Virus record (IMG/VR): IMGVR_UViG_3300035698_016797
Location: 96,001 to 160,000 of that record
DNA length: 64,000 nt
Source: a virus
Direction: 5' to 3' (one strand)
Shown in pieces: positions 278 through 64,000 of the stretch. Both the position numbers and the translations under genes were made by a program. How positions within the stretch are numbered: the first letter of the stretch is position 1; the number at the start of each line of letters is the position of its first letter. Below the pieces are notes generated by a model. The model saw only the letters and a list, made by a program, of their open reading frames with translations, searched no databases and had not been told where the DNA came from.

Positions 278-984
278 GCTCTCTGTTTGAGTATCTTATA
301 AATTGTGTTTTTAACACTTGATCTATTGACAGGCTGTAACTGGTTTAGGAAGTCCTTTCTGGTTACAGACCTGTCATAGCTTTTTGCCAGAGCGGCAATT
401 CCAGACACAAATGCAGCAGAAACACTGTGACCACTCATTTCTTTTTCATTCCCAAACGGCCATGCAGAAGTGAGAGTGTGTGGTGCCACTAGGTTGTAAT
501 ATATATCGGTTTGCTCAAACGATGCAACTGCTATCACGAATGGATATATGGATGGATATGTTCCATTAGAAGACGCACTAACAACTATGGTCCCGTTATG
601 ATCCAATCTCTCTAGCATTTCTTTAATCTCTGGATCTTCAATAGTGTAGGCTAAGCTTAAGTTTATAACGTCTGGTTGTAATTTTAACGCCCACTCTATT
701 CCATTACGTAACCATTCAACCCTTCCGCTACTAGTCTGAGAAACGTGTGCAATATTAAGAGTACACTCCTGTGCCAACTGACATATGGTTCCAGCAACGT
801 GAGTACAGTGACTCTCTGCATAAAACTCTCTTCCAGGAACAAACCTCTTAACGATTCCAACGTTTTGTCTTATCATGGGATGTGCGGTATCTATTGCGGA
901 GTCACATATTAGAACAGAAGAGTCTCTCCCTTTGGAATCTATCCATTCTATTGGAACCGACTTTAAACTATACTCCTGGTGCAT
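274..984 (-). CDS. Subtilisin-like (S8) serine protease
   Basis: Catalytic-triad motifs in S8 order: LICDSAIDTAHP (Asp), HCTHVAGTI (His), MSGHSVSAAFVSGIAAL (Ser). Also DVINLSL and VSASSN. I prefer the ATG at 984 (GAAGGA upstream) to the track start at 1071, which overlaps the neighbouring gene more. Confidence 0.85.
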   Translation of the reverse strand: MHQEYSLKSVPIEWIDSKGRDSSVLICDSAIDTAHPMIRQNVGIVKRFVPGREFYAESHCTHVAGTICQLAQECTLNIAHVSQTSSGRVEWLRNGIEWALKLQPDVINLSLAYTIEDPEIKEMLERLDHNGTIVVSASSNGTYPSIYPFVIAVASFEQTDIYYNLVAPHTLTSAWPFGNEKEMSGHSVSAAFVSGIAALAKSYDRSVTRKDFLNQLQPVNRSSVKNTIYKILKQRA

Positions 985-2284
985 TTTGATCTGATCCTTC
1001 AAAATTATCCTCCACCACAAATTGAGCATCAGTAACCCACACCTCATGTCTTCCTCCAAAGTTATCCTCAAGGATTACTAGAGCCTTTCCTAACACTTCT
1101 GCCCCTAGACACTGTTCTACCCAATTGCCGTCCTCAGACAAGCCTGCTGCAATATTAAAGCTTACTGGTTGTCCATGTAGTCCTGTTGGTAGATCCCATT
1201 CATCAGTAGTGGAATAACAATTTGCAGATGCTGGGTCATTAAGGTATGGAATGTCTCCTCCTCCGCCAGACATTTCAGAATCGTCATAAAACTCTCCGCT
1301 TGGATCTACAGTGTTATATCTAAGCTCTCCACTAGGATTTTTGGTTAGAAATTCGTGATAATAATTTCCAGGAGAACCAACATTTCCATCATCATCACTG
1401 AATGGTGATTGAATTACGCTACTATAAAGATCTCTGTATGGAATTTGTACATTGACTTCAAACCCATCTCCAAAATCTTCATCATCTACGTCTCTGTCTT
1501 CGTGATATTGCCATCTTTCCCAGTCCGAATGTATCACAGTTTGATATTCAATTGTTGGATAGATGTAATATTTATCTGCATATCCATATCTTCTTGCGAT
1601 GTTGTCTTCAACTGGACCATCACTTGATTCATAATGATAATCCTCTCTTCCCGCTGCATACTTACGTGGTATTGTCCATTCACAATTGGGAGGAAACGCA
1701 TCAGGAGACCAGTTCCAAGTACTGACTCCGCTTGGGTCATTAGCAGCCCTTAAGGCGTGATCTCTTATCATCTCAATATCATCTTGCCAATATTCTATTG
1801 GAAGGGTTCTCCCAAGATTTACCCAATAGAAGAAGTTGTCCTTTGTTTCTCTGTACGGTCCATGTGTGTGCATTTCTCTACTTGCATCATATTTTATCCC
1901 AGTTTTTCCAATAACACTGATTTGATCGTCATTATTTTCTGAACTATCCCACGGCTGTATATATATACGTCTCCAAAATTCACGGATGTAGAAAAACCAT
2001 TTTGGTGTTCCTATAATTTTCATGTTGTCAGGAATATTTGAATCAAATTCTTTGACTCTTTCAGACCATGTGTCTTCAAGTTTGAACCTGTAGTTTTGGA
2101 CACCCTTGTACGCCTGTCCACCACTTGAACTAGTAGGATCATGTCCAAGCATAAAGAAATGAACATGTCCTCTGTGTTTATAGGGATTACTTTGCCATCC
2201 AGAAGAGTATGTATACGTTCTAAAAATCCACTGATCGTGAAAAATATAATACAGCGGGAAAAACCTTAATCCTTGTCCTATCAT
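968..2284 (-). CDS. Hypothetical protein, probably virion-associated (rich in D/W/Y)
   Basis: 438-aa ORF with TAGGAG SD 6 nt upstream; distal end of the tail module; three PSG motifs. Confidence 0.6.
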   Translation of the reverse strand: MIGQGLRFFPLYYIFHDQWIFRTYTYSSGWQSNPYKHRGHVHFFMLGHDPTSSSGGQAYKGVQNYRFKLEDTWSERVKEFDSNIPDNMKIIGTPKWFFYIREFWRRIYIQPWDSSENNDDQISVIGKTGIKYDASREMHTHGPYRETKDNFFYWVNLGRTLPIEYWQDDIEMIRDHALRAANDPSGVSTWNWSPDAFPPNCEWTIPRKYAAGREDYHYESSDGPVEDNIARRYGYADKYYIYPTIEYQTVIHSDWERWQYHEDRDVDDEDFGDGFEVNVQIPYRDLYSSVIQSPFSDDDGNVGSPGNYYHEFLTKNPSGELRYNTVDPSGEFYDDSEMSGGGGDIPYLNDPASANCYSTTDEWDLPTGLHGQPVSFNIAAGLSEDGNWVEQCLGAEVLGKALVILEDNFGGRHEVWVTDAQFVVEDNFEGSDQNAPGV

Positions 2285-2293
2285 AATAATCTC

Positions 2294-2701: not shown

Positions 2702-2702
2702 T

Positions 2703-5700
2703 TTACAGCTCCTCGTATCCATCTCCGAACTTTAAGTACTTTATTTCCTCGTGATACAAAAAGTTTGATGGACTCATCTCTCCATCGTAAGTTTCTGATT
2801 CACTAGGTGTCATCCACGACCCTCTTACAAATATATTCTTAGAGGTATCATCGTTGCGAAACTCTATCATAATTTGTACGTCTGCTTCTGCCGATACATT
2901 TTGAAGTTCACTTGGAACATATGTAAGTGGAAGTTCTATTGATTTTGCATTCCCAAATTTGCTTGATTCCACATTGTTTATGTCTCCAGAGGGATTCCAC
3001 CAAGAAGAATTGCGATCCCACACGTTTACCCACGTCCTATCCTCAAGTGTTGCTGTTTTCACCAGAACATTTCCACTATTACTATCATTGTAGTACATTC
3101 TTTTTACATATGTACCATAATACAAATCCTCAACTACGCATGGATTCATAGTATTTGCAGTATCTATTTCAACCTGTTCATCTGTCCAGATTTCTCCATC
3201 TATGGACGTTTGACTGTAGATTTTACTACCACCAGCAACATATCTTGTATAGTACATTTGATAACCACTTGGGGTCATTATAGCATATGGAGTGTTTAAT
3301 ACGTCAGAAGATTCTATGACGGGACTTCCTCCATTCTCTGCTGTGAAATATGTCCCATCCTCAGAGGTGGAATAGAAAATTCCGCTTGGACTAGTAGAGT
3401 TACAATACCACATGTGATATGAACTTCCATCATATACTACAGAAGGACTGTACACTCCGTTTCCAATGTTTGTCTCAAGTATGTCAGACCAAGCATCTCC
3501 ATCTAATGATTGTGTGTATGCAATACGGTTTTGAGATCCATTGTATACGGTAAGCCACATTTTGAAAATACCACCGGAATACATCACAAAAGGTGTATAT
3601 GCAGAGGCATATCCAGTTTCGCTTTCCAGTGTTGTTACTGCATCTTTTGGAAACGCCTGTTCATATTCCCCAAAATTCTCAGGAGTTTTTCCTCTTGCGT
3701 GTAGTATAACGTTTTCATTAAAAGTATTAGGTTTTGAATACCACATGTAATATTGGTGTTCTTCTGTGATTGCAACAACAGGACGCGATCTATCTATTCC
3801 ATATGGAACCCAAATGGTTGGGTTTTCTATCTCGTGATCACTGTGGGTAACAGGTCTATCTGTTGGGAATGTCACACTTTCAGATGTTGCCCAAACTGGA
3901 GTCTTATCATTGAGAGAGTACCATATGTTATAAAGAGAAGCCTCTTGTAACGACTCGTCTGCATACATGGTGTAATCAATATCTATTTCAGACAATGATG
4001 GGTAGACATCAATGGAGGTAATTAATGGCCTAGGCTCTTCTAGTGGAGCAATACTCCATGTGTTATAAGCCCTGGTTCTCCATTGATAGGTGGTATTGAA
4101 CTCTGCAACTCCAGAAGGTAATGTATCTGTCATTGTAGGGTATGTGTTGTTGATAAAAAAGTCCTCTCTATCCCCTGGCATATCATCCTTGTCAAGGATA
4201 TACGTACACATAACTGACTCTTGAGCCTGTATTGTTGTTTCTGTAGATCCCAAAAAACTCTCGTCGTTATTTGCTGTAAACCCTTCATCCCATGGCTGTC
4301 CTTCTCCGTCTCCAAAGCCTTCCCACTGTTTGTCAAAGTCTTGCATAGACAAATCAACTTCTCCGTCTGGAGGATTCATGCTTTCCCTATTTGGTCCGCC
4401 AACAATTCTGTCACCATCGCTGGTAAATAAATAATCTCTCAATGGCAACCCACTCTGGGAACTGAACGCAGAGGTAAAATCTAATTGAAATTGATGATAA
4501 ACTTCATATCTTTCATCGTACGAGACTTGATAGTCATCGTTGGCGTCAAAAGCATCGTCTCCATAAGGCATACTTTCCACCCTAAATCTAAATATTCCAT
4601 TGGCAGTAAGGTTCCCTATGTATCCATTGTTATAGTATCCCTGATCAATAAGGTCTTTTCTTATATCCTTTTCTGCCTCATCTCTTACATTCCTCCAATA
4701 AGGAATTTCAACATTGCGCATTCCATCTATTAGTTCACGCTTCTCTGCAACAACTTCATCCCTACTAACTCCTGGAACTATTTCCTTTTCCCACCATGCG
4801 GTTATTCCTACAAAATCATCTGGAACACCGCTTGCATTTGGAGGATCATAGAAATTATAGATACCGGAAGGAGATGGTTTAATCATCATTTCATCAATTT
4901 CTTTTTCAAGTCTGTCGATCTCTCCAGAAAGGTGAAGAGGTGGGTCCATTTTTTCAAGAGAGTCTGTTTCTTCATCATAAACATATTCTTGTATGTGTCC
5001 GGTCATCCTTCTCAGTTCCAGTTCCGCCTTGTTAAGCACTGGATTATGACGCTTGTTCCAGTTAAAAATTGGAGCAGTCAAACCATTCAAAAGTTTAGAT
5101 GGACACACCTCCATGCGAATACGATATTTATCTCCCGGCGTCAAATCTTCTGTTGCAATAAGCCAATTCACAGTGTGCTCGTTTGACCCTTCAACAGAGG
5201 ACAGGCTGTATCTTTCCCCGGTAACATTCCCATCGTTAATTTGTGTAAACGTTTCTCCATCGGTCGAATACCATAAATTTGTGACATGATAGTCGTCTCC
5301 TTGAGAATCATCAAGCCTAAAATTGATAACCAGAGTCTTGCTCCATGGCTCATAAGATGTGGAAGTTATGTTTGCAGGGTTTGACGCATGTCTATCCACA
5401 AAAAACTTGTTACTATATACCCACGTAGAGAATGTTCGAGAAACGCTATCGTATTGACGTATGCGCAGTCGGTAGTCATATCCCTCTTCTAACAGTTGTT
5501 TGTTTATGATGTCCCAGTATGCGTGCCAACGATTTGGTTGCACTAATTTAGCGTCTGCCTCTGATACATATTCAGAATCTTCAGAATTTACATCGTAATA
5601 ATCAGTGTGTTCTGTGTCGCTCAGATATTTTGACACCTGCAAGTGAATCATTGATGTATCACTGACCGTTGCCTGCCAATGTAGTGTATTATAGGCATCC

Positions 5701-7958
5701 CACCCAGACTGTAGGTAAATTATTCTCAAAGGCTCAAGAGGATTGATGGTAACAAAGTTCCCATACAGAGCAAAGTTTCCTTTTTCCCATCTAAACAGCG
5801 GTGTTGGTCTTTTAAGGTGCCCACTACTTTCTGCTGGAGAATATCCTACAACATAATCTTCTTTACCTTCAAACATGGTTCCAACAACAGGAATATAGTC
5901 TCTTGATCTTATGAAGTTGGCATGAATATTTGAGTTTACAATAAAATCATGTGCAGGAGGGTTATAATCAGAGGTTGATTTCTTAGCCATGTTGACTTCT
6001 GCATTCAAAAAAGGATATACACCGCTGGACAATGCTTTTGGAGCATCCAACTGAAAAGTTGTTCTTTGAAAATTCTCATATTCCGGTAATGGCTTTGGGA
6101 AAATCGTGTCAGCCTTTACTGGACTTCCAAAGATAAATTGATATCCACGCTCAAATCTTGGAGTGTGTGCTCTAAATCCAGCGTAGAAGTTGTTTGTTAA
6201 TGGGTAAATCCAATCTTCAATTGGCTTATAATCAGACGTTGCATATGTGTATATTTGGTAAGGGTCAGTTCTTTCACTAGAAAAACGACTGCCACTACAG
6301 GCAACGCATGGAGTTCTTTCGTACAATCCAGATGCAACCTGAACCAAACCAGAGACTTCCCATCCTTGTCCATCACATGTGGTGCAGTGTTTTCTGTCTG
6401 CTAATGCTTTGAATCTGAACCTAAGATGCCCAAATCTTGTTCCAGCTTTTGCAAAATCAACATCCGTAGCCTCGATGTGCCATCCATCAGGGCCATAATA
6501 GTCAATTCTTTTGGCCATAGGAGGATCTTCTGCATCAAAATCTTGAAACGTTAATTCTCCTGGAGAATGACTCCACCAGTCTCCGGCGTCCCATCCTACA
6601 GGGATTCCCCACTCGTCAAACTCTTGAGTTAAAGGACTGATGATTGCGTCTGCATTGTTATTAGGGGACATTTCCAAACCATATGTATATGTAAGGTGGA
6701 TAGGAGATGAGGAGTGACCATAAGATGGTCCCCTATCTATGGCTCCATCTTTATCTCTCAATGCACTGGTGAGAAGCCCTTCGCTGTAATGTTTCCACCC
6801 TATAATCTCGTTTATATCAACCTTATATACTCCAGAATAATCTGTAGCAAAAGGTCTAAGTTCACAGCCTACTGGCATCTGTTCCTCTGATAGAGGTGAC
6901 TCTACATATTTGGCAACCAATCCATAAATTGGAAACTCTATATCAAAAGATCCAATTCCTCCAGAAGATCCTCCAATCGTAGAGTTGTCCATCGAGAATG
7001 GTCCATAAAAGACTTCAAGGCCGGGTCCAATAGAGTCGTACGGAGTAAAATGTATAGAATAATCATCAGACTCAACAAGCTGTTCGTCTCTACCACTTCT
7101 CCAAACTATGGTCCTTTGTTCTCCCTGTATAACCCTCAACAAGGGGTTAAGAAGGCTCATTTTTGTACTTGTTGAACCGGTATTTCCACCAGTATAATTT
7201 GCGTGAATATATACATCTTCACCATCAAGGTCTGTAACCGTAAATGTTATGTAGACATCTCCATACACATTACCTGTGACATATACTTCGTCAATAGTTA
7301 TTGATGGCGGAAAGTTTTGGTAATTAACAAAACCATTTACACGAGTCCAATTTCCATAATCATAACCATCATATGCTCTCACCTTCCAAAAGTATGAGAT
7401 CCCAGAATTAACAAAGACGTTTGTTTTTGTGTTTGGACTTGAATAATTTTGTGGAATTTCAAGATCGTATACTTCATCAAAGGGATCTACGAATGTTGGA
7501 TCAGTTGAAACCAAAACTTCATAGATAATAGACTGACCACTGTTTGGATCTGCTGCATTTTTCCATTGAAGATATGCAGTGTCTGCGTTGTGAAGCTCTT
7601 CCGCAATGGGATCATAAACAAAATATTGAATACCAGATGAATATTCAAAAGTTTCCCACCAACTACCGTTTTCTGAAATTGCAATCTCAACAGACAATAA
7701 ACCCTGGAAATTAGTTCCCATTGGAACACCAAGTGGGTATTGAAAGAATTCGTCAGAAGAAACTTTCGTTCCAGACTGATACAATCCAGTTTGCCCAGTC
7801 TCTTCGCTTGTGATACGGATAGAGAAACGCGCTTGCGTAACATCTTCCGGTACAGTCCACGAAATGATTGGGGTTGAGCTAGAAGTAGCCGTTGGACAAG
7901 CTTTTGAAAGCTCCAATGAAGGACCAACGGCAATGTTAAGATCTAATACCTGTGCCAT
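2703..7958 (-). CDS. Large tail-associated protein: FN3/Ig-like domains, CxxCxGxG zinc finger, C-terminal five-bladed beta-propeller-like region
   Basis: 1751 aa with GAGGA SD. FN3-like YFWKVRAYDG. CTTCDGQG...CVACSGS. Repeated blades of the form P-x-V-x-Y-x(3)-Y-x-M-W-Y...S-x-D-G-x(2)-W. Confidence 0.7.
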   Translation of the reverse strand: MAQVLDLNIAVGPSLELSKACPTATSSSTPIISWTVPEDVTQARFSIRITSEETGQTGLYQSGTKVSSDEFFQYPLGVPMGTNFQGLLSVEIAISENGSWWETFEYSSGIQYFVYDPIAEELHNADTAYLQWKNAADPNSGQSIIYEVLVSTDPTFVDPFDEVYDLEIPQNYSSPNTKTNVFVNSGISYFWKVRAYDGYDYGNWTRVNGFVNYQNFPPSITIDEVYVTGNVYGDVYITFTVTDLDGEDVYIHANYTGGNTGSTSTKMSLLNPLLRVIQGEQRTIVWRSGRDEQLVESDDYSIHFTPYDSIGPGLEVFYGPFSMDNSTIGGSSGGIGSFDIEFPIYGLVAKYVESPLSEEQMPVGCELRPFATDYSGVYKVDINEIIGWKHYSEGLLTSALRDKDGAIDRGPSYGHSSSPIHLTYTYGLEMSPNNNADAIISPLTQEFDEWGIPVGWDAGDWWSHSPGELTFQDFDAEDPPMAKRIDYYGPDGWHIEATDVDFAKAGTRFGHLRFRFKALADRKHCTTCDGQGWEVSGLVQVASGLYERTPCVACSGSRFSSERTDPYQIYTYATSDYKPIEDWIYPLTNNFYAGFRAHTPRFERGYQFIFGSPVKADTIFPKPLPEYENFQRTTFQLDAPKALSSGVYPFLNAEVNMAKKSTSDYNPPAHDFIVNSNIHANFIRSRDYIPVVGTMFEGKEDYVVGYSPAESSGHLKRPTPLFRWEKGNFALYGNFVTINPLEPLRIIYLQSGWDAYNTLHWQATVSDTSMIHLQVSKYLSDTEHTDYYDVNSEDSEYVSEADAKLVQPNRWHAYWDIINKQLLEEGYDYRLRIRQYDSVSRTFSTWVYSNKFFVDRHASNPANITSTSYEPWSKTLVINFRLDDSQGDDYHVTNLWYSTDGETFTQINDGNVTGERYSLSSVEGSNEHTVNWLIATEDLTPGDKYRIRMEVCPSKLLNGLTAPIFNWNKRHNPVLNKAELELRRMTGHIQEYVYDEETDSLEKMDPPLHLSGEIDRLEKEIDEMMIKPSPSGIYNFYDPPNASGVPDDFVGITAWWEKEIVPGVSRDEVVAEKRELIDGMRNVEIPYWRNVRDEAEKDIRKDLIDQGYYNNGYIGNLTANGIFRFRVESMPYGDDAFDANDDYQVSYDERYEVYHQFQLDFTSAFSSQSGLPLRDYLFTSDGDRIVGGPNRESMNPPDGEVDLSMQDFDKQWEGFGDGEGQPWDEGFTANNDESFLGSTETTIQAQESVMCTYILDKDDMPGDREDFFINNTYPTMTDTLPSGVAEFNTTYQWRTRAYNTWSIAPLEEPRPLITSIDVYPSLSEIDIDYTMYADESLQEASLYNIWYSLNDKTPVWATSESVTFPTDRPVTHSDHEIENPTIWVPYGIDRSRPVVAITEEHQYYMWYSKPNTFNENVILHARGKTPENFGEYEQAFPKDAVTTLESETGYASAYTPFVMYSGGIFKMWLTVYNGSQNRIAYTQSLDGDAWSDILETNIGNGVYSPSVVYDGSSYHMWYCNSTSPSGIFYSTSEDGTYFTAENGGSPVIESSDVLNTPYAIMTPSGYQMYYTRYVAGGSKIYSQTSIDGEIWTDEQVEIDTANTMNPCVVEDLYYGTYVKRMYYNDSNSGNVLVKTATLEDRTWVNVWDRNSSWWNPSGDINNVESSKFGNAKSIELPLTYVPSELQNVSAEADVQIMIEFRNDDTSKNIFVRGSWMTPSESETYDGEMSPSNFLYHEEIKYLKFGDGYEEL

Positions 7959-7969: not shown

Positions 7970-10753
7970 TTACGTGTCAATGTTGTAGTATTTGCCTTCA
8001 ATCTCTGCTGAGAAAACTTTGCGACCCACGGTTGTTGCAGGATAACTGCTGCCTCCAGTTCCTCCAATAACCCATACAACACGACCATAAAAAACCGTCC
8101 TAGCACTAACGTCAAATCCAAATGATGCATTTTTCCAGGTGGACAAGATTGTTCTTGCTGCCGTCTTGGTGCAAAACGAATCAAACGTGTAACTTTCCTT
8201 TACTTCCATGGCTGATTTGTCATATGTTTCAGTAGCGGTTCCAACCTGAATATCCCATGGCCTATTAACATCTAATACTTGGTCTATTGTTCCATCGTTG
8301 TCGTTGTCATACCCTCTAGCTAAAAACTTAAGCTTACCATCTTCAAGAATTGCATCTCCCTCATTAACAAGTTTTACATCAATCCATGTATAGTCTGGAA
8401 AGAGAGGAGTGTCATCTGCTACAATGGTACTGTCTCTGAAAATCAAAGTACCAAAACCATCGTTTGTTAACCTTTTGTAGGTGTGATGGTAATAGTCGAG
8501 AGATAGACGTCCAGAAGGAACAAACGCATATTCGTCTCCATGGGCCGTTGTTCCGTTTGAAAATTCCACTAAACCTCTGTCTTTATCAAGAGTATAGTTG
8601 GCCGCAACCTTTCCAGAAGGAGAAGCTGACGTTGGATACCCATGCACATATGTTGCAACCTTGTTTACTACAGCACCTGATGGGGTTACATACATAGCTG
8701 GGTCAAGATAATCAACAAGATCATCAGTAGATGCGGTAAACAGTCTAGTATAATCCTGAGCAACCCTATCTGCCTCGTTTACGTAATGAGTATAGTCTGA
8801 AGTTACCACACCACTTGGATCTTGCAAAAATGTTACTTGCCCAGCGTCTAAATCTACGTCTATTTCTGTGTCATAGTAGTCGTAAATCATTCTTAAGGCT
8901 CCGCTATAGGACTGTCCGGTTGGGTATTTGTGTAGCCACACCTCTCCAACTGTTTCGTCAACGTGGTAATTGGAAAAAGTTCTTTCGTGCTTTTCTCCAG
9001 CCTTAAATTTGAAGCCAGACGCAGCTGTAGAGGCATCGGAATAAAGAATTAAACAAATTCTTGAAATCCCACGAATTGTAGGAATTTCAAACCCTCCATT
9101 TACGTCTGCGTTGACAGAGTATCCTGTTGAAAGCTCTATTACTTGGTTGCCTTTTCCACTATATGCATACAGCTCTGTTAACTTGGAAGAGTCTAGTAGT
9201 GTATATGTAGTCTCTCCTCTGGCTCCAAGAACTGCTTGTGTTGCACCGGCAGCAGTCGCATCATATAAGGCTACATGGTCTCCTGTGTATGGAGACATAT
9301 TATTGTAAGGAGGACCATAGCTGTTAGGATCAAGATAGAAGTGTTCAAACTCTAAGTCTACGTCTCCGTATCCAGTATTGTCTATTATCCAATACCTAAA
9401 GTTCCCAATGTATGAACTTTCAAGATTAGAATAATCCTTTGTTGCATCATCGGTCCAATCTACAGTGGTAGCTCGTCCTTCAGAGTCATAAACCACAGCA
9501 CCACTAGAGATCTGAACAGCATCATAGCTGGTAGTACTCGCTCCATTCATTGCAATACACAAAGATTCATCAAGATCTCCGTCTTGATCAACAGGATAAG
9601 AGTGAGTGGTTGGATAAAAAATGTCATCCCATCTGCGGGTGAACGTTCCAGCTAAAGATTGGGTTTCACTAACAACACTTGTACTTCCTTGTTGTGTTAC
9701 CTCAATTATTACGTGGTCATATTCCGAGCTTGGTTCTCTTAATAGACGGTTGTCGCATTCAAAAACACGAGTGTTACATCTAATAGTTTTTGTCGCAACC
9801 GTAGTGTTGGTCGCAGCATCTCTAAATGTAACACTGATATCAGAGTCCGCATCATAGTCATAATCTGTGCCTGTTAACGTTACAGTGGCACTTGTTTTGT
9901 ATGTTATCCAAGATCTTACGTCTGATTGGTCATCAATATCCCCATCAATATAAATTTCAAGATCAAGATAGTCTTCAGCATAGATGTCAAGAATAACAGT
10001 CCTGTCTGGAGAAAAAGACCCATCTGTGGCTATATCTATGCCCGTGTAGACAGTTTCATCAGAAACTGTGCCGTTGATTTTAAGATAAGTATTTGCTGGA
10101 GCAGTTGTATGCATCAAAATGGTATCACTAGCCGTAGTACTCGTGTTATAGTATGCATCTCTCAACTTTACATATACACTCTTAGATTCTTCGGTCAGGG
10201 TTGTGAGTGTGATCCCAGCCGTTCCAGATGGAGCGGTGTAAGCTTGCCAACTTGCACCTGAAAACGCGCTTGTTTCTGCTGTTTTATAATATGTGGCATT
10301 TCCACTTGCTGTTACGGCAAACGATAACGATTGAACGTTTGTATATGGATCAAGTGAAAACGATACTCCAGAAGGGTCTGCCGTATAAATATTGAACGGA
10401 TCTGTTGTGTAATATCCACTGCTTGCAACACCACTGGCATCTGTAAGCATAAGTCTGAACAACATTTCTTCAGAAGAATATCCGTCAAGGTCTGTTTTTA
10501 CGTCCCATCTTAACAGTGTACTTCTTCCTGGACTAGACACGTATGAGGGCATAGCCAGTCCCGTTGTAGAGCTGTCTAGGGTTCCATCGTACCAAACTCC
10601 AGAAGCACTACTAAATGCATACTGAAAACCACTTGCTGACACATCACATGCCAACTGTAGATCGTGCTGGAGTTTGAACGATACTTCTGCAACAGGACTT
10701 TCAAGATATGTTGTCATTAATCCTGCAATGTCGTTAATAACTGGTACTGCCAT
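7970..10753 (-). CDS. Tail-associated protein with Ig-like repeats and a CUB-like domain
   Basis: 927 aa with AGGAG SD. Modules such as VYVKLRDAYYNTS; CUB-like LEFEHFYLD...DHVALYD...LYSDASTAASGFKF; 11 [AP]SG motifs. Confidence 0.65.
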   Translation of the reverse strand: MAVPVINDIAGLMTTYLESPVAEVSFKLQHDLQLACDVSASGFQYAFSSASGVWYDGTLDSSTTGLAMPSYVSSPGRSTLLRWDVKTDLDGYSSEEMLFRLMLTDASGVASSGYYTTDPFNIYTADPSGVSFSLDPYTNVQSLSFAVTASGNATYYKTAETSAFSGASWQAYTAPSGTAGITLTTLTEESKSVYVKLRDAYYNTSTTASDTILMHTTAPANTYLKINGTVSDETVYTGIDIATDGSFSPDRTVILDIYAEDYLDLEIYIDGDIDDQSDVRSWITYKTSATVTLTGTDYDYDADSDISVTFRDAATNTTVATKTIRCNTRVFECDNRLLREPSSEYDHVIIEVTQQGSTSVVSETQSLAGTFTRRWDDIFYPTTHSYPVDQDGDLDESLCIAMNGASTTSYDAVQISSGAVVYDSEGRATTVDWTDDATKDYSNLESSYIGNFRYWIIDNTGYGDVDLEFEHFYLDPNSYGPPYNNMSPYTGDHVALYDATAAGATQAVLGARGETTYTLLDSSKLTELYAYSGKGNQVIELSTGYSVNADVNGGFEIPTIRGISRICLILYSDASTAASGFKFKAGEKHERTFSNYHVDETVGEVWLHKYPTGQSYSGALRMIYDYYDTEIDVDLDAGQVTFLQDPSGVVTSDYTHYVNEADRVAQDYTRLFTASTDDLVDYLDPAMYVTPSGAVVNKVATYVHGYPTSASPSGKVAANYTLDKDRGLVEFSNGTTAHGDEYAFVPSGRLSLDYYHHTYKRLTNDGFGTLIFRDSTIVADDTPLFPDYTWIDVKLVNEGDAILEDGKLKFLARGYDNDNDGTIDQVLDVNRPWDIQVGTATETYDKSAMEVKESYTFDSFCTKTAARTILSTWKNASFGFDVSARTVFYGRVVWVIGGTGGSSYPATTVGRKVFSAEIEGKYYNIDT

Positions 10754-19110: not shown

Positions 19111-19121
19111 TGCCTTTATTC

Positions 19122-23557: not shown

Positions 23558-23566
23558 GTTTTATCC

Positions 23567-43850: not shown

Positions 43851-43926
43851 AATTACTACCTCTTTTTTTTGTTTTCTTTTGCTTACGACTGAGAACTTGT
43901 ATCATGCGGCTGGAACATTTAAAGTT

Positions 43927-43972
43927 CTCAACTCACTATATAATATCCTAACTTACATTTCCTAATCACAAA
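43927..43972 (-). promoter_or_regulatory. Putative late promoter upstream of the tail tube gene
   Basis: TTTGTG-N15-TTAG-NN-TA-N-TAT-N8-TTGAG; matches 51238..51283 at 23 of 46 positions without gaps. Confidence 0.4.
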
Positions 43973-48695: not shown

Positions 48696-48709
48696 TGTTC
48701 ATCTCCTCA

Positions 48710-55419: not shown

Positions 55420-55420
55420 A

Positions 55421-58177
55421 TTAATACCTATATACTGTTAAGTCCGATGGAACACCAGGAGGTGTGTTTACAACAAACTGACCAACCGGACTCCATCCGG
55501 CAGAATCCTGATGCCCATCATTCGCCTTTATTCTCCAATAGTACTGATTGGAACTCAACACTTGTCCACCAAGCATTGTATAGTAGTAGGTTGGAATGTC
55601 CTCAATCGTTTGTACTATTGTCGGATTTCCCTGTTCGTCAGCGGAAAAATCATACTGAGTACCTACTTCCATAGTATACTCAATTACATCTAAAGTGTCA
55701 CCATCTAATGATTGTCCCCATTCAAAGTTAATGTTTGACAAAGATCCCACCATTGGGTTTGTAATCTGAGAATTCACACCATTGACATCCATTGGCCCAG
55801 TAGCATTTACAGGTATATGATTATATCTAACTTCAAAATGAGTTGTTGGTCCAAAGTTGCCTATGGTATTTCTGGCCGCAATATGGAAGTAGTATGTTCC
55901 TGCTCCTTCATATATCTCAAGATCATATCCTGTTATAGTTTGGGTTGTTCTTTGGAAAGAGTCAGATGCTTCTGTTCCTGAATTTTGATCTAAAAATATA
56001 AAGTATCCGTCGGTTGGATAGTATCCAGGTGTTGGAGCATTCCATGTAAATTCGATATCGTTTTCCTCTTGCCACGTTGCCTCTGCTACGTTGCAGGATA
56101 CAACAACCTCTCCTGGAGCATCCTCTATGACTGTAATTTTACCGTATAGATTCTTTGCCCAATATCTCGTAACCGTAATTTTTGCAGAGAAATCGTCATT
56201 AAACTCATCTATCCATCCATAGCTTTCTGGAGTATAAACCGCCATTGTTGCCCCAAGATCTTCTATTGCAATGATATATATCATAGCACCAAGGTCTCGG
56301 TTTACTTTGTACCCTACATTAATAATACACCCAAGCTCTGAATCGCCATATGTATTCAACTCAATCTTTGCTCCAACATCTGAGTATCCAAAAACATCAA
56401 ATACATTTATGTATGCACGCAAATCTTCATATGGAGAAATAGAAATTCTTGCACCAATATCTGCCCTTGAAAAGATTGTAAGCTTTGCGCTTATTTCTAC
56501 ATCGTGTGGTTTTGAAACTGTTATTGTTCCGCCAAGTTCTGAGACTAATTCTTTGTATACATTTAGAGATGCCCACAGATCAGAGTATGGTTTTATTGTA
56601 ACCTTACCGCCAAAGTTTGATAGAGAAGGCTTTACAACGCTCATTTTTGCAGAGAAGTCTACACTGATTGGAGTAACTTCCATTTCATTCCAAGACGACC
56701 ATCCTCCATACTGTTTGGAATCCCAGGCTCTCACTCTCCATGCAAATGTGCCGGACAGTAAGTCTGAATCAATCTTATAACTTGTTGTCAGTCCAAGGTC
56801 TGCTCCAGGTATATCGTAAAAGTTCACCTCAGAAGAGTATACATTTGGACTTAGTCCAGACGGAACAACTTGTAGGTGATACAATAATACATCAAGTTGA
56901 TCTTCGTCTTCCGCATTTCCCCATGTAAATGTTGGACGACTTGTATATGCTAATCCAGATGGATTTGGTAGCGTCTCGATATAGAACGGAGTGGTAGGGT
57001 CTGACGGTAGCGTGTTTATCTTTACGTTGTATGTTGAAGTTGAGCCTATCCATCCATATGAGTTCCTGGCCGCAACATGGAAAAACATACTTCCTGCATC
57101 GTACCATGTTTTGCCAATATAGTGAAATTGAGAATATTGATCAGATTGTGAAAGTGTATAGTCCTCGGTGTCATTCCATGCAACCATATACCCGTTGCCA
57201 GTTGCCAAATATCCCCAATCAGAAGGCTCATCCCATGTGAAGATAAACTCTTCTTCTTGTTGCCATGTGCCGGATGGCACTATTGAAGTTCCAGACGGAG
57301 GTAAACAATATCCACTAGGATCTAACCATCCACTTGGCATTGGAGGATATCCACTTGGCATTGGATAGGCAATTAGATCATAAACACCACTTGGTCTATT
57401 TGCTATAGGAGAAATGGAACTGCCAAGATTGCTAACGTCTTTACCATTAACTGTGATTAAGCCAGACAGTTGCTGATGGTCTACTGTAACCGTACATTTA
57501 CCACCAAGAGATGTGTACGAAGATTTGATAACCTTGATTTTTCCACCAAGCAACTGGTCTGTGACATCAACGGTAATTTTTGCATCAAGAGGGCTTGATC
57601 CTGATATAGTAATCTTGGCACCAAGGTATTGGCCTCCAAGCGTAACTGTTATAGATGCTTCAAATTCCTTTATTCCCCTAAGGACATTTATTTGTGCACC
57701 AAGATCCTCGTTCGTTGGAATAGAAAGCTTTGCTCCGAGATTTTTAGTCTCGGTTTGCATAACGGTAATTTTTGCATCAAAATCATCTTTTGGATAGACA
57801 AAAATCTTACCTTTTATACCACGATAAACAGTACACCTTGCAAGAAGATTTTTCTTTGGCTTAATAGTAAGCTTTGCTGGCAAATTTTTGTATGGAATAA
57901 CATAAATGCTTGCCAACATATTCGTATACAGATATTCAACAATTTTTATGCGTGAATCTAAGTCTGTGTTGCTGAATATAGAAATTTTTGCTGACAGATT
58001 TGCTCCACCAGCGCCGGAGATAATAATACGAGCATCAAGACCTGACTCTGGTTTCTCGACATCAATTCGAGCACCAAGAGTAGAGTGGTAAGAAGGAAGC
58101 AGCGTGTCAATACCATCCCATGTGGTATTAGTCTGATCCCATGTTTGATTTAGTAGATCCCAAGTCTGATTAGCCAT
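55421..58177 (-). CDS. Fibre-like virion protein: about 31 short beta repeats plus FN3-like domains
   Basis: 918 aa. Repeated [LF]-G-A-K-I-T-[VI] units in two blocks; FN3-like WRVRAWD and YYWRIKAND; dense PSG cluster. Confidence 0.65.
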   Translation of the reverse strand: MANQTWDLLNQTWDQTNTTWDGIDTLLPSYHSTLGARIDVEKPESGLDARIIISGAGGANLSAKISIFSNTDLDSRIKIVEYLYTNMLASIYVIPYKNLPAKLTIKPKKNLLARCTVYRGIKGKIFVYPKDDFDAKITVMQTETKNLGAKLSIPTNEDLGAQINVLRGIKEFEASITVTLGGQYLGAKITISGSSPLDAKITVDVTDQLLGGKIKVIKSSYTSLGGKCTVTVDHQQLSGLITVNGKDVSNLGSSISPIANRPSGVYDLIAYPMPSGYPPMPSGWLDPSGYCLPPSGTSIVPSGTWQQEEEFIFTWDEPSDWGYLATGNGYMVAWNDTEDYTLSQSDQYSQFHYIGKTWYDAGSMFFHVAARNSYGWIGSTSTYNVKINTLPSDPTTPFYIETLPNPSGLAYTSRPTFTWGNAEDEDQLDVLLYHLQVVPSGLSPNVYSSEVNFYDIPGADLGLTTSYKIDSDLLSGTFAWRVRAWDSKQYGGWSSWNEMEVTPISVDFSAKMSVVKPSLSNFGGKVTIKPYSDLWASLNVYKELVSELGGTITVSKPHDVEISAKLTIFSRADIGARISISPYEDLRAYINVFDVFGYSDVGAKIELNTYGDSELGCIINVGYKVNRDLGAMIYIIAIEDLGATMAVYTPESYGWIDEFNDDFSAKITVTRYWAKNLYGKITVIEDAPGEVVVSCNVAEATWQEENDIEFTWNAPTPGYYPTDGYFIFLDQNSGTEASDSFQRTTQTITGYDLEIYEGAGTYYFHIAARNTIGNFGPTTHFEVRYNHIPVNATGPMDVNGVNSQITNPMVGSLSNINFEWGQSLDGDTLDVIEYTMEVGTQYDFSADEQGNPTIVQTIEDIPTYYYTMLGGQVLSSNQYYWRIKANDGHQDSAGWSPVGQFVVNTPPGVPSDLTVYRY
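57328..57365. repeat. 17-bp direct repeat with a 21-bp period, encoding PMPSG twice
   Basis: ATCCACTTGGCATTGGA at 57328-57344 and 57349-57365. Confidence 0.9.
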
Positions 58178-58219: not shown

Positions 58220-58225
58220 TTGAGG

Positions 58226-59326
58226 CTATGATCTTTTTGATTCTGCAATCGTGTTAAGCTTCTGTTCTATTTTAGTATGTTCTGCTAGTGATATATCAAA
58301 AGTTTCTGCAACTTTTTCAACATCTTTCATTCTTTGAATGGTATGTTTTGCAAATTCTTCTGTATATCCTTCCCCAAAAATGTTATACTCTCCCACTCCA
58401 TTAATTTCCATGTTTGAACCGAAAACTGGAGAAAAATGCACACTTGAAATGTTAACCTCTTTTGCAAAGTGCAACACTTTTTCAAGATGTGGTAATGTTT
58501 TTTTTGTAACCACACAGATAAGTGTTCTTATTTTGTGATGTGGATGTGCGTTTGCTATTTGTCTAATATTTTCCACAACATTATCAACCTTTACTCCACG
58601 GTTGAATAGATATGATTCTGGGTCAACTGAATCTATTGATATGTCAACCATAGAAATTGGACCCTCGTGAACCCACTTGTTATATCTCTCCAACGTTAAT
58701 CTTTGTCCGTTAGTAGTAAGACAAAAGGGCTTGCTAGATTCAGAATTTTTGAGTGGCAAAAGCAGCTTTGATAACTCTTCGTCTGTCAGTACCAGACATT
58801 CTCCGCCAACTATTCTAAATGCCGAAGCGTCCTTGGCCCATTTTCCAATGTGAGAATATGCCTCACTAGAATTTGGAGGGTGCATTATCCTATCCTTAGT
58901 ACTGAATTGAATACAAAACGTACATTTTGCATCACAAACGAGAGTGATTATAACTTGAGCGTTCAACGGAGTGCATTCAACGACAACTTCGTTGTTGTCA
59001 ACAAGGTTCAAAAAATATTCCAATTGTTCATCGGGAATACACTTTTTCATTGGACCAAGCCTCTCTTCTGGGGTTTCTGACTTGAGAAGTTCTGGACACG
59101 AAGTGCCTTTGCAACATTTGTACATTCCGTCTTTAAGCATATCTCCTCTCATCTCTTTGAAAAAATCTCCATTCCACCATTCAAAATCTCCAACATACGG
59201 TCCCTTCCAATCTTCATACAGGGCACCGCAGCGTCCCATTTGACAGCAACATGTAGCTCCGTTGTAGCTTGCAATTGCAGAAATCCAAGGCTTCATACAA
59301 ATATCTTTTCTATCTCTATTTTTCAT
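58226..59326 (-). CDS. Radical SAM protein with an N-terminal SPASM/twitch-like domain
   Basis: CDAKCTFC (CX3CX2C); N-terminal CMKPW...CCC...WWNG...MR...CCKGTSC. The ATG at 59326 overlaps the GT stop (TAATG). Confidence 0.85.
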   Translation of the reverse strand: MKNRDRKDICMKPWISAIASYNGATCCCQMGRCGALYEDWKGPYVGDFEWWNGDFFKEMRGDMLKDGMYKCCKGTSCPELLKSETPEERLGPMKKCIPDEQLEYFLNLVDNNEVVVECTPLNAQVIITLVCDAKCTFCIQFSTKDRIMHPPNSSEAYSHIGKWAKDASAFRIVGGECLVLTDEELSKLLLPLKNSESSKPFCLTTNGQRLTLERYNKWVHEGPISMVDISIDSVDPESYLFNRGVKVDNVVENIRQIANAHPHHKIRTLICVVTKKTLPHLEKVLHFAKEVNISSVHFSPVFGSNMEINGVGEYNIFGEGYTEEFAKHTIQRMKDVEKVAETFDISLAEHTKIEQKLNTIAESKRS

Positions 59327-62025
59327 TATCTTTTCCCACATAAATGTTCACACCTAACTCCGCCATGCAATAGAATTTTAAGGTTGCTGTCTCTAATGTC
59401 TCTACACATATTTGAATCCCAACCGTCAAGCCTGCCTTCTCTAAGCTTGGCTTTGAATGGCATACACTTTTTCAGTGCAAAGTTTTCCCATACGGTTAAA
59501 CCTCCTCCAACAAACCCAACTTCAATAATTTCTTCTTTCAAATCTTCAAAGAGAATAGTTTTGTGCCAATAGTCATACGCAGCTGCTGCTGTAACTGCCT
59601 TAGGATTGCCAGCGGAGGGGTATACTGCTGCACATGCACCTATTCTGCCCCAAGGCTTGAATGGCTTCATTAGATCCCATATAGCACCCTTATATGGTAT
59701 TACATCATCCTCACACGTAACTATTAAATCGTCAGTCAAACTCATAATTGCATGATTGTACAATTTGGCAACATGCAGATGTCTTATAAGCTCCATTTCG
59801 TGTGTTCCGGGAACAACCGTACATGGTTTAGATATTCTTGAAATTGTAAGCCTTTCAAACCTGTCTGCAACCTTGTTTTTGCGACACCAATCTGAAATCA
59901 TATTGTGATACTCTTCTGAGTTTGAGTTGTCAACTAGCATCAATGAACATTTTGGAGGAATGTTTTCAGTCATTAGCCAATTTGACCATCGTTCGAAAGG
60001 TTCCATTCTTCCAGCCAGAAGTGTAACAATACAAAAGGTTTTAGCGTTCCACATTGCAATTCTTTCTTTGTCTCCAATTTTTCCAGAAAGACATCTGCCT
60101 TCCTCGTGTCTGCGATATAGATATGCTGGACCGTGAAGCTTTTGACCCTTCCATCCAGCCCTGGTAAGTCTTAGAACAAGATTGTAGTCATCAAGAGTTG
60201 GGGATTCGTCGTCCCATCCGTCTATTTCTTCAAGGGCAGATTTTCTAAAAATGGCAAACGTATCAACATAATTTCCCTTTCTCAATTTCCAAAAGTCATA
60301 CTCTGGAACCTTCCAAAGTTGAGTATGTTTCATTTGAGAATCACAATATTGTATGTTGGAATATAGAAACGAAACATTTCCTTCAACGTGAAATAGCATA
60401 CTCTTTACGTGTGCACAATATCCTTCTGGCATCAAGTTGTCAGCATCCATGTATAAAATCCATGGTGTTTGAGCCTTCTTTATAGCAAGATTTCTTTGTG
60501 GATTAGGCTTTCCCCACTTGCCACCAATTACGGTCCAGTCGGCACGCCTACATAGCCAGTCTGGAACTTCGCAATCATCGAGTGTAATTATTTTTTGCTC
60601 AAACTCATAATCTTGTGAGTCTACACTATCAATAGCATCTTCAAGATAACATAAGTATTTTTCATGACATGTCATCATTAGTGTAATTGGGAGATATTTG
60701 CTATTTGCAAATTGTTCTGCCGGAGAAAGGTATTCATCCCTAAGTTTACCAGCTCTTTTGAAACTGAGAGAACGTATCAATCCTTTGACCTGAACCCTAA
60801 TTTCATCTACCACTCCATCTCCACTCTTCAGGTTTTTAAGCAGAGCGACAGCAGCCTTTCTATCATATATTACTTCAGCATCATCAGATTCTGATATTGA
60901 CGATTCAAGATCTTGGATAAGACGATGTTTCAGAACGTCTTTTAGTTTCAAGTGTGGATGGATGGAAGAACACCATTTAGACAGCTGTATGTTGTCAGAT
61001 ATTGCCGATATGTTTTCACTGTATGACAAGTGATGTCTTTGAACGGCACATAATAAACCAATAACTCTACCTTGGTCCATTTTGTGATTAATCAACGTGT
61101 CTAATGGAATCCTTTGTTCAATTACAGTGTTAGAATCTGAAAAGATTCCTCTTTTAGTAGAGAGTATTGGAGTTCCAGTATATAGACCGAACATTACTCC
61201 ATCTGCACCGTTGGTTAAAATTGCAGAGCTGTTAATAGTTAATTCTGCAAGGTCTGCATCCTCGTATTTCACAAATTGCCATCCCAAAGAATCAAATTGT
61301 GCCTTGTATTTTTTGCCGGTTTTATTCCACCACAATTCGCTGTTAAAATCTGGAACAACAACGACTGGAACGTTGTTGGAATTAATGTCAATTGCTGTAT
61401 TTATAAGAGGCTGAATATTATCTTTGGTCACAACCATTAATATATGACCATCTGGATCATAAGAGTTGAAACTCAGACCATGCTTTTTCATATCAGAATG
61501 TAGGTTTTCAATCTCATCTTTAGATGGTTTGATTGAATATTCTGAATTTACAACAACGGATGATTCTTCGCGAAATCCACACACATCGACAGAAAACGAA
61601 AAACGATTGCCGAGAAATCCGTCTCTAATAAAAAGAATGTTGCTTCCAAGCTTATTATACTCTTTTGCAGAACGTCCAACATCGTACACAATTAAATTAT
61701 CTGTGCCTTTTGCGAGCTTTGGTAAAGCTCTCACGTTGCGTCCAATAACTCCATATTTGGACATGTTAACATTTAACGTATCTAGTGCGTTTTCTATTGT
61801 TTCCCATGTTTTGGATTCAAAAATTCCAGAAGTTAACATAGCAAACGCATACTGTGGTTTGTCTGGAGCTAGTAGATATATTCCTCTGTCTGTTACCATA
61901 AAGCGCGAGTCGCTTCTTAGCAGTTCAACTAGAGAGTCAATATCTTGATTTTCTCCAATACAATTCCTTATACCTTTGTCGTTGAGTTGAAAAACTCTAT
62001 GATCTACAAAAAAATCCTTTTGCAT
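59326..62025 (-). CDS. Multi-domain glycosyltransferase (GT-B/capsule-synthesis-like domain, GT2 domain and a second GT-A-like domain)
   Basis: GT2 motifs QRNLAIKKAQTPWILYMDAD, DDYNLVLRL and LYRRH. Second GT-A region with CEDDVIP and HGGVRCEH. N-terminal INSSAILT...GLYTGTPILS segment. Confidence 0.85.
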   Translation of the reverse strand: MQKDFFVDHRVFQLNDKGIRNCIGENQDIDSLVELLRSDSRFMVTDRGIYLLAPDKPQYAFAMLTSGIFESKTWETIENALDTLNVNMSKYGVIGRNVRALPKLAKGTDNLIVYDVGRSAKEYNKLGSNILFIRDGFLGNRFSFSVDVCGFREESSVVVNSEYSIKPSKDEIENLHSDMKKHGLSFNSYDPDGHILMVVTKDNIQPLINTAIDINSNNVPVVVVPDFNSELWWNKTGKKYKAQFDSLGWQFVKYEDADLAELTINSSAILTNGADGVMFGLYTGTPILSTKRGIFSDSNTVIEQRIPLDTLINHKMDQGRVIGLLCAVQRHHLSYSENISAISDNIQLSKWCSSIHPHLKLKDVLKHRLIQDLESSISESDDAEVIYDRKAAVALLKNLKSGDGVVDEIRVQVKGLIRSLSFKRAGKLRDEYLSPAEQFANSKYLPITLMMTCHEKYLCYLEDAIDSVDSQDYEFEQKIITLDDCEVPDWLCRRADWTVIGGKWGKPNPQRNLAIKKAQTPWILYMDADNLMPEGYCAHVKSMLFHVEGNVSFLYSNIQYCDSQMKHTQLWKVPEYDFWKLRKGNYVDTFAIFRKSALEEIDGWDDESPTLDDYNLVLRLTRAGWKGQKLHGPAYLYRRHEEGRCLSGKIGDKERIAMWNAKTFCIVTLLAGRMEPFERWSNWLMTENIPPKCSLMLVDNSNSEEYHNMISDWCRKNKVADRFERLTISRISKPCTVVPGTHEMELIRHLHVAKLYNHAIMSLTDDLIVTCEDDVIPYKGAIWDLMKPFKPWGRIGACAAVYPSAGNPKAVTAAAAYDYWHKTILFEDLKEEIIEVGFVGGGLTVWENFALKKCMPFKAKLREGRLDGWDSNMCRDIRDSNLKILLHGGVRCEHLCGKR

Positions 62026-62040
62026 CCTTAAACCTTTCTT

Positions 62041-64000
62041 TTATATCGCAACTGTTCCGCTAAAGCTCCCCGTTGTTCCCGATATGTACGTTCTTGTAGA
62101 GCTTGAGTGCCATTGACTTGGCAATTGTCGTCCATCTTCATATGAACAAGGGATGTTATTTAATATATACAATCCTGGTTTTCCTCCCCACGTAATGAGT
62201 GTAAATGTATTACTATGTCTACGCATACCACAAATTCCATGATCATTTACTCCTTCAAGATTTCTCCATTGAGAAGAAAAGAAATGAGTAAAAGATATTC
62301 CAAGATCGGTCTTTCTAAGAATTTCTATATCCCAATTGAATGTTGACACCCCTGCCTCTGGCGTTCCAGAAATGAAAACGTAGTCTCCTGGTGGGGCATA
62401 TACACATCTAGGAACCCAAGTTCCCAATGTTACCTCTTTTAAAATGGTCATGTCGGATAGTCTGACTTTAAACAGTTTAGCAGGACTTCCTTTGCAGACA
62501 AAGTATGCGTGTTCGTTTTCAGAATCAATAGAAAGGCTTGTGATTGGCAAGTTTAACAACTCTCCTTGAAGTGCTGCTGAGGTTATAAAGTTGTGAGCAT
62601 CGTAATATAAAGAGTTTTGATATAAGCGCCCTTCATTAACAAAGAAGTATCCCACAGAGCTGCTGCCACACAATCCTAAATTGAATTCTGAATCATTTCC
62701 AACCGGCACACTGTAGGATAGACCACCAAAACTTGTTCCCAAGGTGTCGGTCATTCTCAAACCGTTTTGATCATAAGACTTGAAAAGCCAAAAGGATGGA
62801 GTAAAACTGTGAGACAGTGCCTCATATTCTAAATTTTTCCAGTCAGTGGTTATTGCAGGAGGAGGCGGTGGAGGAAGAATTGCAACATTACCACCTCCAT
62901 ATATACAACCAGAAGCTAATGCACGAATACCGCTTGGTGAAACCTTGTCTTTGAAAATATAAAGCTCGTCCAAATCTCCTTCAAGTGGATGAGAATACGT
63001 TGCAAGAAAAAGATCTACGTCATATGGTGCAGCTACTCCAACCCCAAAATTATCACCATTCAAAACTAGAAGGCTGCCTTTATCTTGCCAATTTACTAAG
63101 GACTCTCCAAATTTTTGACCATTAATGTAGAATTCGACAGGTTGGCCATCTTGCCATCCAACATAGTAATGAGTCCACCCACTTGGAACGGCTATCTCGG
63201 GAGATGAACATATCACGTCCACATCGAGGTAAGATCTATTAAACAAATTTATAACTCCATCTTTAAATGCCAGTCCATATATTGCTATTTCTCCAGCACT
63301 CGATCCTGCAAACCACTCTTGATGTCCACCAAAAATACCCTCATCTGGACTTCTTGCCCAAAATGAACAAGATCCTATATCCATGGGAAACGAACCATAA
63401 GTTCCTGCATATCCCACAATGCTATCGGCAAGTATGGACCATGAAGGAGTTCCAACATAATATCCGTCAGCATTTCCGGTAAAACATGAATCTCTAAAAC
63501 TAACCGTAGACTCTCTAATTCCAGAAGCTGCAACCGCAATACTGCCACGAGGTGAAAAATCTTGATGAGTAACCCACTCGTGTTCTGGACCATACTCATC
63601 TGTTCCGTCATCAGAAGCTGCAAAGAAAAAAGCTGTCCACATATTTTCAAAGTCAAATGTTGGTACAATTGGAATTGGCCATTCGTTTTCGTTTCCGCTT
63701 GCAGGTGGTGGAGTATATGGTTTTAAGTCAATCGTTGCACTATTTGTCCCAAGCTTACCATCAATTTCATCTACTACGACTGCACCTTCTGAGTTTAGTA
63801 CAAAATGTTGAGATCCAAATCCTGTCCACGTAATGGTAAACTCCACTTCTCCAACCTGAACTGCTAACTGCTCTCCGTAGGTGGTGAATGTGTGTTCGCT
63901 ATCCCCTCCTACATCAAAAACAAAATATCCCCCAACCGTTCCTACTGTAAAGGATTCTCCAGCAATAACCACGGTTGCGGTCTCACCTTCTTCTCCAATA
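62041..64000 (-). CDS. LamG/ConA-like domain virion protein, 5'-truncated by the window edge
   Basis: SCSFWAR...THYYVGW...FYING...GDLDELYIF is a LamG signature. The frame stays open from 63972 to the window end (IGEEGETAT), so the real start lies outside the window. Confidence 0.75.
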   Translation of the reverse strand, partial: IGEEGETATVVIAGESFTVGTVGGYFVFDVGGDSEHTFTTYGEQLAVQVGEVEFTITWTGFGSQHFVLNSEGAVVVDEIDGKLGTNSATIDLKPYTPPPASGNENEWPIPIVPTFDFENMWTAFFFAASDDGTDEYGPEHEWVTHQDFSPRGSIAVAASGIRESTVSFRDSCFTGNADGYYVGTPSWSILADSIVGYAGTYGSFPMDIGSCSFWARSPDEGIFGGHQEWFAGSSAGEIAIYGLAFKDGVINLFNRSYLDVDVICSSPEIAVPSGWTHYYVGWQDGQPVEFYINGQKFGESLVNWQDKGSLLVLNGDNFGVGVAAPYDVDLFLATYSHPLEGDLDELYIFKDKVSPSGIRALASGCIYGGGNVAILPPPPPPAITTDWKNLEYEALSHSFTPSFWLFKSYDQNGLRMTDTLGTSFGGLSYSVPVGNDSEFNLGLCGSSSVGYFFVNEGRLYQNSLYYDAHNFITSAALQGELLNLPITSLSIDSENEHAYFVCKGSPAKLFKVRLSDMTILKEVTLGTWVPRCVYAPPGDYVFISGTPEAGVSTFNWDIEILRKTDLGISFTHFFSSQWRNLEGVNDHGICGMRRHSNTFTLITWGGKPGLYILNNIPCSYEDGRQLPSQWHSSSTRTYISGTTGSFSGTVAI

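Follow-up and report, generated by a model that had tools for sequence, protein, structure and literature searches.

The stretch of DNA analysed here, referred to as the window, comprises 64,000 nt and represents bases 96,001–160,000 of the complete, 181,030 bp genome of an uncultured phage, with direct terminal repeats (IMG/VR record IMGVR_UViG_3300035698_016797, designated here as G000). It encodes a virion module whose putative outer proteins are rich in the tripeptide [Pro/Ala]-Ser-Gly ([AP]SG, i.e. PSG or ASG), together with a glycosyltransferase (GT) and a radical SAM (S-adenosylmethionine) protein that are considered here as candidate modifying enzymes. All long genes of the window, including every window feature described below, are carried on the minus strand. 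Pfam/PHROG matches in the window were obtained for TerL, the portal, the major capsid protein (MCP), an S8 peptidase, the radical SAM protein and a GT2 glycosyltransferase; tube, terminator, hub and similar role labels were assigned by gene order only, and the classes 'exposed' and 'internal' by gene order plus the Pfam/PHROG matches for MCP, portal and TerL only. Deposited phages are all remote from G000, with TerL exhibiting 26–28% identity to that of Bacillus siphoviruses and the MCP 22% identity to that of phage G, and exact peptide words used to look for close relatives returned none. Eight relatives were located on IMG/VR contigs of 46–441 kb, five full genomes being analysed.

The late operon includes genes for an 899-aa GT (positions 59326–62025) and, adjoining it, a 371-aa radical SAM protein (58226–59341). 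These genes are flanked by those of motif-rich proteins, namely a 918-aa fibre-like protein (55421–58177), with eight [AP]SG sites of which six PSG fall within residues 262–303, and an 842-aa LamG protein, the C-terminal part of which lies in the window (62041–64000; six sites in full, five in the window). The latter and a 1163-aa protein containing four LamG domains represent two further [AP]SG-rich proteins at the end of the window or beyond it. Within the tail genes, sites were observed in a 2414-aa tail protein (11890–19134; 21 sites, 2.8 expected), a 927-aa tail-tip protein (7970–10753; 11 sites, 0.74 expected), a 368-aa protein (10772–11878; nine sites, 0.44 expected), a 1751-aa tail fibre-like protein with a weak Ig_Rha78A_N match (2703–7958; seven sites, 1.16 expected), a 1033-aa hub-like protein (19544–22645; five sites, 0.91 expected), distal-tail proteins of 299 and 249 aa (22658–24316; three and two sites) and a 438-aa distal tail protein (968–2284; three sites, 0.27 expected). 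The 304-aa tube and 244-aa terminator proteins, named by position (42936–44707), carry two sites (residues 19 and 175) and three sites (0.15 expected), respectively, while the MCP and a 165-aa decoration-like protein (47814–49207) carry one (residue 155 of 293) and two. The tape measure protein (TMP) of 5506 aa (24327–40847) served as an internal negative control, with four sites compared with 6.2 expected. These per-protein counts reproduced exactly those of the initial annotation, which had pointed to the presence of the motif in the MCP, decoration and tube proteins, and the underlying signal proved stronger than had been claimed.

When all 8000 tripeptides were scored in the window against an expectation based on the composition of each protein, PSG ranked first (48 observed, 5.2 expected; z 18.8) and ASG second (36 observed, 6.9 expected; z 11.1), with the third-ranking tripeptide reaching a z of only 5.9 and no residue other than Pro or Ala being notably enriched ahead of Ser-Gly. 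In the proteomes of five relatives, the highest-scoring tripeptide attained a z of only 5.7–8.1. At the level of the whole genome, 20 putative exposed virion proteins were shown to contain 93 [AP]SG compared with 11.6 expected (Poisson P ~1e-50), as opposed to five compared with 7.3 expected in the TMP, chaperones, scaffold, protease, portal and terminase together, and 14 compared with 14.4 expected in the remaining 35,000 residues. The portal, protease, scaffold, GT, radical SAM protein and S8 peptidase each contain none. This confirms that the [AP]SG excess is limited to the virion module of the genome, in agreement with the previously suggested contrast between surface proteins and internal or non-structural ones. 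Composition-shuffled expectations were 5–20 times below the observed counts, and in seven proteins none of 1000 shuffles reached the observed count; a composition artefact was therefore rejected, as the excess survives both shuffling and the per-protein expectation.

The excess is also specific in its sequence. Control motifs were flat ([AP]TG, 12 observed and 10 expected; GS[AP], 13 and 11.6; [AP]GS, nine and 11.6; [VILT]SG, 23 and 26.9; [AP]DG, nine and 8.8), the sole raised control being [AP]SA, mildly so (16 and 8.6). The serine codons at the sites comprise both families (49 TCN and 35 AGY), and codon choice for Pro, Ala and Gly tracks genome usage, indicative of selection on the peptide rather than on a DNA word, so that a DNA-word artefact was rejected. 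A duplicated-domain artefact was likewise rejected, since one paralogous pair accounts for two of the 93 sites; ~91 sites are thus independent in origin, in some 20 unrelated exposed proteins. The sites are clustered, with 18 neighbours within 12 residues compared with 8.8 under random placement, and tandem arrays of 5–7-residue [AP]SG units were found in the 918-aa protein and in P0043 (see below). The residue after the motif glycine is often Val, Tyr or Leu, and the flanks are not acidic (Asp plus Glu, 9.2% upstream and 8.6% downstream, compared with a background of 12.6%).

Comparison with orthologs demonstrated that the protein folds in question do not demand the motif. Among tail-tip orthologs, the [AP]SG excess was 8.6-fold in G000 compared with 2.7-fold in G001, 2.8-fold in G002, 1.1-fold in G005, 1.8-fold in G008 and 0.9-fold in L007, and the 2414-aa protein, with its 21 sites, has orthologs with one to three sites in the same five relatives. 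Homologs from phages without the GT gene had been proposed as a check, and they indeed displayed a much lower frequency. PSG makes up 61% of P-x-G in G000 compared with 33, 23, 9 and 0% in relatives, and ASG 37% of A-x-G compared with ~7%. Just 11 of 76 sites are common to G000 and its closest relative, G001; at the non-shared sites, the orthologs mostly possess ordinary turns (PDG, PNG, xNG or xDG). On the basis of these alignments, the motif excess is shown to be a derived state in the G000 lineage.

The 927-aa protein illustrates the same pattern more widely. Its 275 homologs range in motif content from 0 to ~26-fold, most having far fewer sites than G000, and a homolog at 45% identity (P0005) contains no [AP]SG. 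In the conserved C-terminal domain, the sites fall on P-x-G columns in which x is Ser in G000, and Arg, Glu, Val, Thr, Ala, Gln, Asp or Lys in other members. The closest known relative of this protein, at 63% identity, is P0043 (contig L071 of 1.3 kb, JGI 3300014208), in which four [AP]SG units occur within 20 residues (ASGVL-PSGVF-PSGVP-ASGLE), in a loop that lacks the motif in G000; P0043 and P0008 are known from fragments of 1.3–1.5 kb only. As regards the 918-aa protein, its G001 ortholog of 1025 aa (G001:C1:60067-63144) contains seven repeat modules that all open with Pro-hydrophobic-hydrophobic-Pro-Ser-Gly-hydrophobic and that make up one fifth of the PSG count of G001. The notion that the PSG array of the 918-aa protein represents a G000-only insertion was consequently withdrawn, as PSG-bearing repeats occupy the same region in G001.

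For the 927-aa protein, AlphaFold yielded a model with a mean pLDDT of 81.6, in which 10 of 11 sites were located in coil directly before or after a β-strand; the N-terminal half of the protein is a chain of FN3/Ig-like domains as found in adhesins and in the T5 tail tip. Buried serines would have spoken against surface modification, and in this model the serines lie at strand edges rather than buried within strands. For the 368-aa protein, the AlphaFold model was unusable (pLDDT 46.6), and its sites were placed with the aid of the ortholog alignment, in which they fall on turn columns. This placement bears on the main rival explanation, according to which [AP]SG is the favoured β-turn or strand start of this lineage in fibre and Ig-like folds, serving folding or stability in its habitat, with no modification involved. 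It accords with the location of sites on turn columns in which Gly, and often Pro, is already conserved, with the hydrophobic or aromatic residue after the motif, as at a strand start, with the role of PSG as a repeat-domain hallmark in the 1025-aa protein of G001 and in the bacterial protein P0116, and with the 1.5–2.8-fold background of relatives lacking the GT. However, the orthologous folds of G005, G008, L007 and G007 manage without the motif, there is no preference for Thr, Asp or Asn forms, and fold physics is hard to square with ~65 convergent changes to one exact tripeptide in unrelated proteins. In addition, the 5–7-residue units of the tandem arrays in the 918-aa protein and P0043 are too short to be fold elements. 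We consider a turn preference of this kind rather unlikely.

The ordinary turns found in orthologs also raise the possibility that Ser-Gly takes the place of Asn-Gly and Asp-Gly, which are prone to deamidation, in long-lived extracellular particles. Positions with xSG in G000 indeed often correspond to xNG or xDG in orthologs, and Asn-Gly stands at 0.66 of expectation in the G000 set of 14 proteins with orthologs compared with 1.0–1.35 in relatives. This explanation was nevertheless largely rejected and is regarded as very improbable, because Asp-Gly is not depleted (93 observed, 77.6 expected), Asn-Gly is equally low in internal virion proteins (0.62), and both the strict requirement for Pro or Ala and the net gain of P-x-G sites are left unexplained. 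Across the G000 proteome, Asn-Gly relative to expectation was 0.84 in exposed virion proteins, 0.62 in internal ones and 1.38 in the remainder.

The 899-aa GT, which the initial annotation had described as a three-domain enzyme near a radical SAM gene, does possess three GT-like domains: a GT-B-like region (residues ~57–369) and two GT2 domains (447–660 and 675–894) that were aligned to P0002 and carry the DxD-type motifs DAD and EDD. Its Atlas neighbours are tandem GT2 proteins, while its N-terminal region exhibits a predicted-structure likeness to phage Capsule_synth/TagF-like GT-B proteins (TM 0.53), which is a lead only, and a comparison with PDB sequences yielded a single match, TarS, at a weak E value of 0.37. 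Relatives are few and all distant, comprising two among 5.8 billion proteins and one or two in contig scans; none was found beside virion genes, the scans of viral and metagenome contigs returning fragments or contigs without virion genes. P0002 is the relative closest to the tandem GT2 enzyme; on its contig (L005), the neighbouring genes encode sulfotransferases, an APS kinase, a GT25, methyltransferases and a pyruvyl transferase, which suggests that the glycan of that organism is sulfated and heavily tailored.

Both the GT and the radical SAM protein are absent from all eight relatives, in each of which they were sought, as were the GT4 pair, GT2 and DegT proteins described below; whole-proteome BLAST of four relatives revealed neither these two genes nor the nine-gene cassette described below. 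The radical SAM protein has a CxxxCxxC motif at residues 136–143 and a Cys-rich N-terminus, and searches for its relatives found none. Its presence opens the alternative that the serine is modified otherwise, for example oxidized or epimerized by this enzyme, or altered by an exploited host enzyme. Such an alternative would fit the uniqueness of the radical SAM gene to G000 and its position adjoining the GT gene, and the weak NCBIfam matches of its product include several peptide-modifying maturases; moreover, PMC13445384 provides a precedent for a host enzyme that modifies phage tail proteins. On the other hand, all NCBIfam matches are far below family cut-offs (the best being N_Twi_rSAM at 56 bits compared with 170) and equally fit sugar or nucleotide chemistry (MoaA, viperin). 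The protein has neither a recognizable peptide-binding domain nor the Cys motif of a SPASM-type C-terminal auxiliary cluster, containing a single Cys after residue 207, and no known radical SAM enzyme targets an [AP]SG site. We accordingly deem this alternative unlikely.

Elsewhere in the genome, proteome BLAST identified a nine-gene block (genome positions 74,429–82,496) unique to G000, which encodes two methyltransferases, GT8-, GT1- and GT9-like proteins, a B12-radical SAM enzyme and a DegT-type sugar aminotransferase; the GT9-like match amounts to 25 bits compared with a cut-off of 185 bits. It is neighboured by a GT4 pair that is common to G000, G001, G002 and G005 and that cannot be assigned to the GtfA family (23.3 bits compared with a cut-off of 574.6 bits). 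The cassette including this pair (74,429–85,073; L002) is situated inside the replication module, with Pol III alpha/PHP genes on one side and a PD-(D/E)XK nuclease on the other. The GT4 pair was rejected as determinant of the motif, as G005 has both genes but zero PSG and no excess, and so was any GT2, given that the proteome of G007, which encodes a generic GT2, stays at background. A search of the genome for a ThyA-type hydroxymethylase returned none, which makes DNA unlikely as the target of the GTs in the manner of T4, and DNA glycosylation as their role was disfavoured.

Several further features of the module were recorded. The first 165 residues of the 842-aa LamG protein (genome positions 158041–160569) are 48% identical to the entire 165-aa decoration-like protein (window positions 48710–49207), and judging from this resemblance the LamG fibre is probably displayed on the capsid, anchored through its decoration-protein domain. 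TMPs of 3991–6192 aa are found across the phage group (G000, window positions 24327–40847; G001, G002, G005 and G008), implying very long tails. The S8 peptidase (274–1071; no [AP]SG) is located at the end of the tail module in all relatives and is thus not tied to the motif; its listed open reading frame overlaps the upstream 438-aa gene (968–2284) by 104 bases, so that its true start probably lies further downstream. In L007 (19814–21355) and on the P0007 contig, a PolyA_pol/HD (CCA-adding-type) gene directly follows the tail genes, and on the P0004 contig HNH genes are inserted among the tail genes.

Some 20 unrelated surface proteins have converged, at ~65 turns, on one ordered, Ser-specific tripeptide, which points to a trans-acting factor that reads this tripeptide. 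As the visible lineage-specific candidates are limited to the sugar cassette and the late-operon pair of GT and radical SAM genes, O-glycosylation represents the best single explanation, and we tentatively propose, at somewhat short of an even chance, that [Pro/Ala]-Ser-Gly is a recognition tag, most likely an acceptor for O-glycosylation of its serine by phage-encoded enzymes. Selection would multiply the tripeptide on exposed turns of outer virion proteins, and its serine would be O-glycosylated in the host cytoplasm, the likely enzyme being the three-domain GT of the late operon. The radical SAM enzyme encoded next to it may assist, and the nine-gene tailoring cassette together with the GT4 pair would provide or extend the sugars. 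Three separate steps are inferred here, namely the existence of a modification on the serine, its identity as a glycan and the choice of the initiating enzyme.

A number of observations weigh against O-glycosylation. The idea that the linked GT glycosylates the virion, put forward in the initial annotation, survived the tests of composition, homologs and placement, but the co-occurrence of motif and GT concerns a single lineage and one genome, and glycosylation of the serine is a plausible reading of sequence and predicted structure. Although devoid of the GT, G001 and G002 exhibit a ~2.7-fold excess, part of which is a repeat-domain hallmark; in the G001 repeat modules and the bacterial Ig-repeat protein P0116, this hallmark is purely structural. 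Neither the GT4 pair nor the generic GT2 follows the distribution of the motif, as seen in G005 and G007, and the cassette, lying in the replication module, could serve another target. Furthermore, the few relatives of the GT reside in glycan clusters rather than virion modules, and a multi-domain, polymerase-like GT need not initiate on protein.

If O-glycosylation at this tripeptide is true, it would provide the first defined three-residue tag, rendering glycosylated phage proteins predictable from sequence; a short portable tag with its enzyme would lend itself to glyco-engineering, and there would be a bearing on phage stability, adsorption and immune recognition. A bolder and improbable extension is that of a proteoglycan-like particle, in which the three-domain, polymerase-type GT, made with the late proteins, would grow polysaccharides with methylated amino sugars on ~90 [Pro/Ala]-Ser-Gly serines, and in which modified serines would stud fibres, baseplate, tube and head decoration; in that case, short 'surface sequons' specific to each lineage would be a trait common to large phages in general, one not described to date. 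Even without modification, ~65 turns convergently rewritten to one tripeptide in a single lineage constitute an unusual evolutionary signal that needs explanation.

To our knowledge, the mycobacteriophages are the one group of phages in which virion glycosylation has been described, and its acceptor rule has never been defined; in a literature search, no report of an [AP]SG acceptor in a phage was encountered. According to PMC12619734, which cites Freeman et al. 2023, capsid and tail-tube subunits of mycobacteriophages carry the glycans at their C-termini, and phage-encoded GTs are proposed to modify capsid and tail proteins in the cytoplasm before release. G000 is similar in encoding its own GTs (two GT2 domains plus a GT-B-like domain, the GT4 pair, and GT8-, GT1- and GT9-like genes). 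In contrast to this C-terminal placement, its candidate sites comprise ~93 dispersed turn tripeptides, mostly in tail-tip and fibre proteins, and its candidate enzyme is a rare three-domain GT.

Xylosylation of animal proteoglycans, with which the motif had initially been compared, occurs at Ser-Gly or Ser-Ala, as in decorin E-D-E-A-S-G (PMC10424144). The analogy holds for the core of Ser followed by Gly, with Ala permitted before it, and [AP]SA is also mildly raised in G000. It does not extend to the acidic flanks or to disordered regions, the sites of G000 being located on turns of folded β-domains, nor to the enzyme, as no match to the GT14 xylosyltransferase family (PF02485) was obtained in the complete G000 genome with a control that was positive in two genomes. 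The tandem GT2 architecture of the 899-aa GT recalls bacterial glycosaminoglycan polymerases, and, as in synthases of the capsule and glycosaminoglycan type, two GT-A domains, each with a DxD-type motif, are present in one chain.

Cytoplasmic O-glycosylation of adhesins is carried out by GtfA/GtfB on serine-rich repeat proteins and by the heptosyltransferases TibC/AAH on autotransporters. Compared with these systems, the GT4 pair and GT9-like protein of G000 match far below family cut-offs and the GT4 pair does not follow the motif, while the likeness lies in the presence of such genes and in the proposed use of soluble GTs that act on many serines of large, repetitive surface proteins before export.

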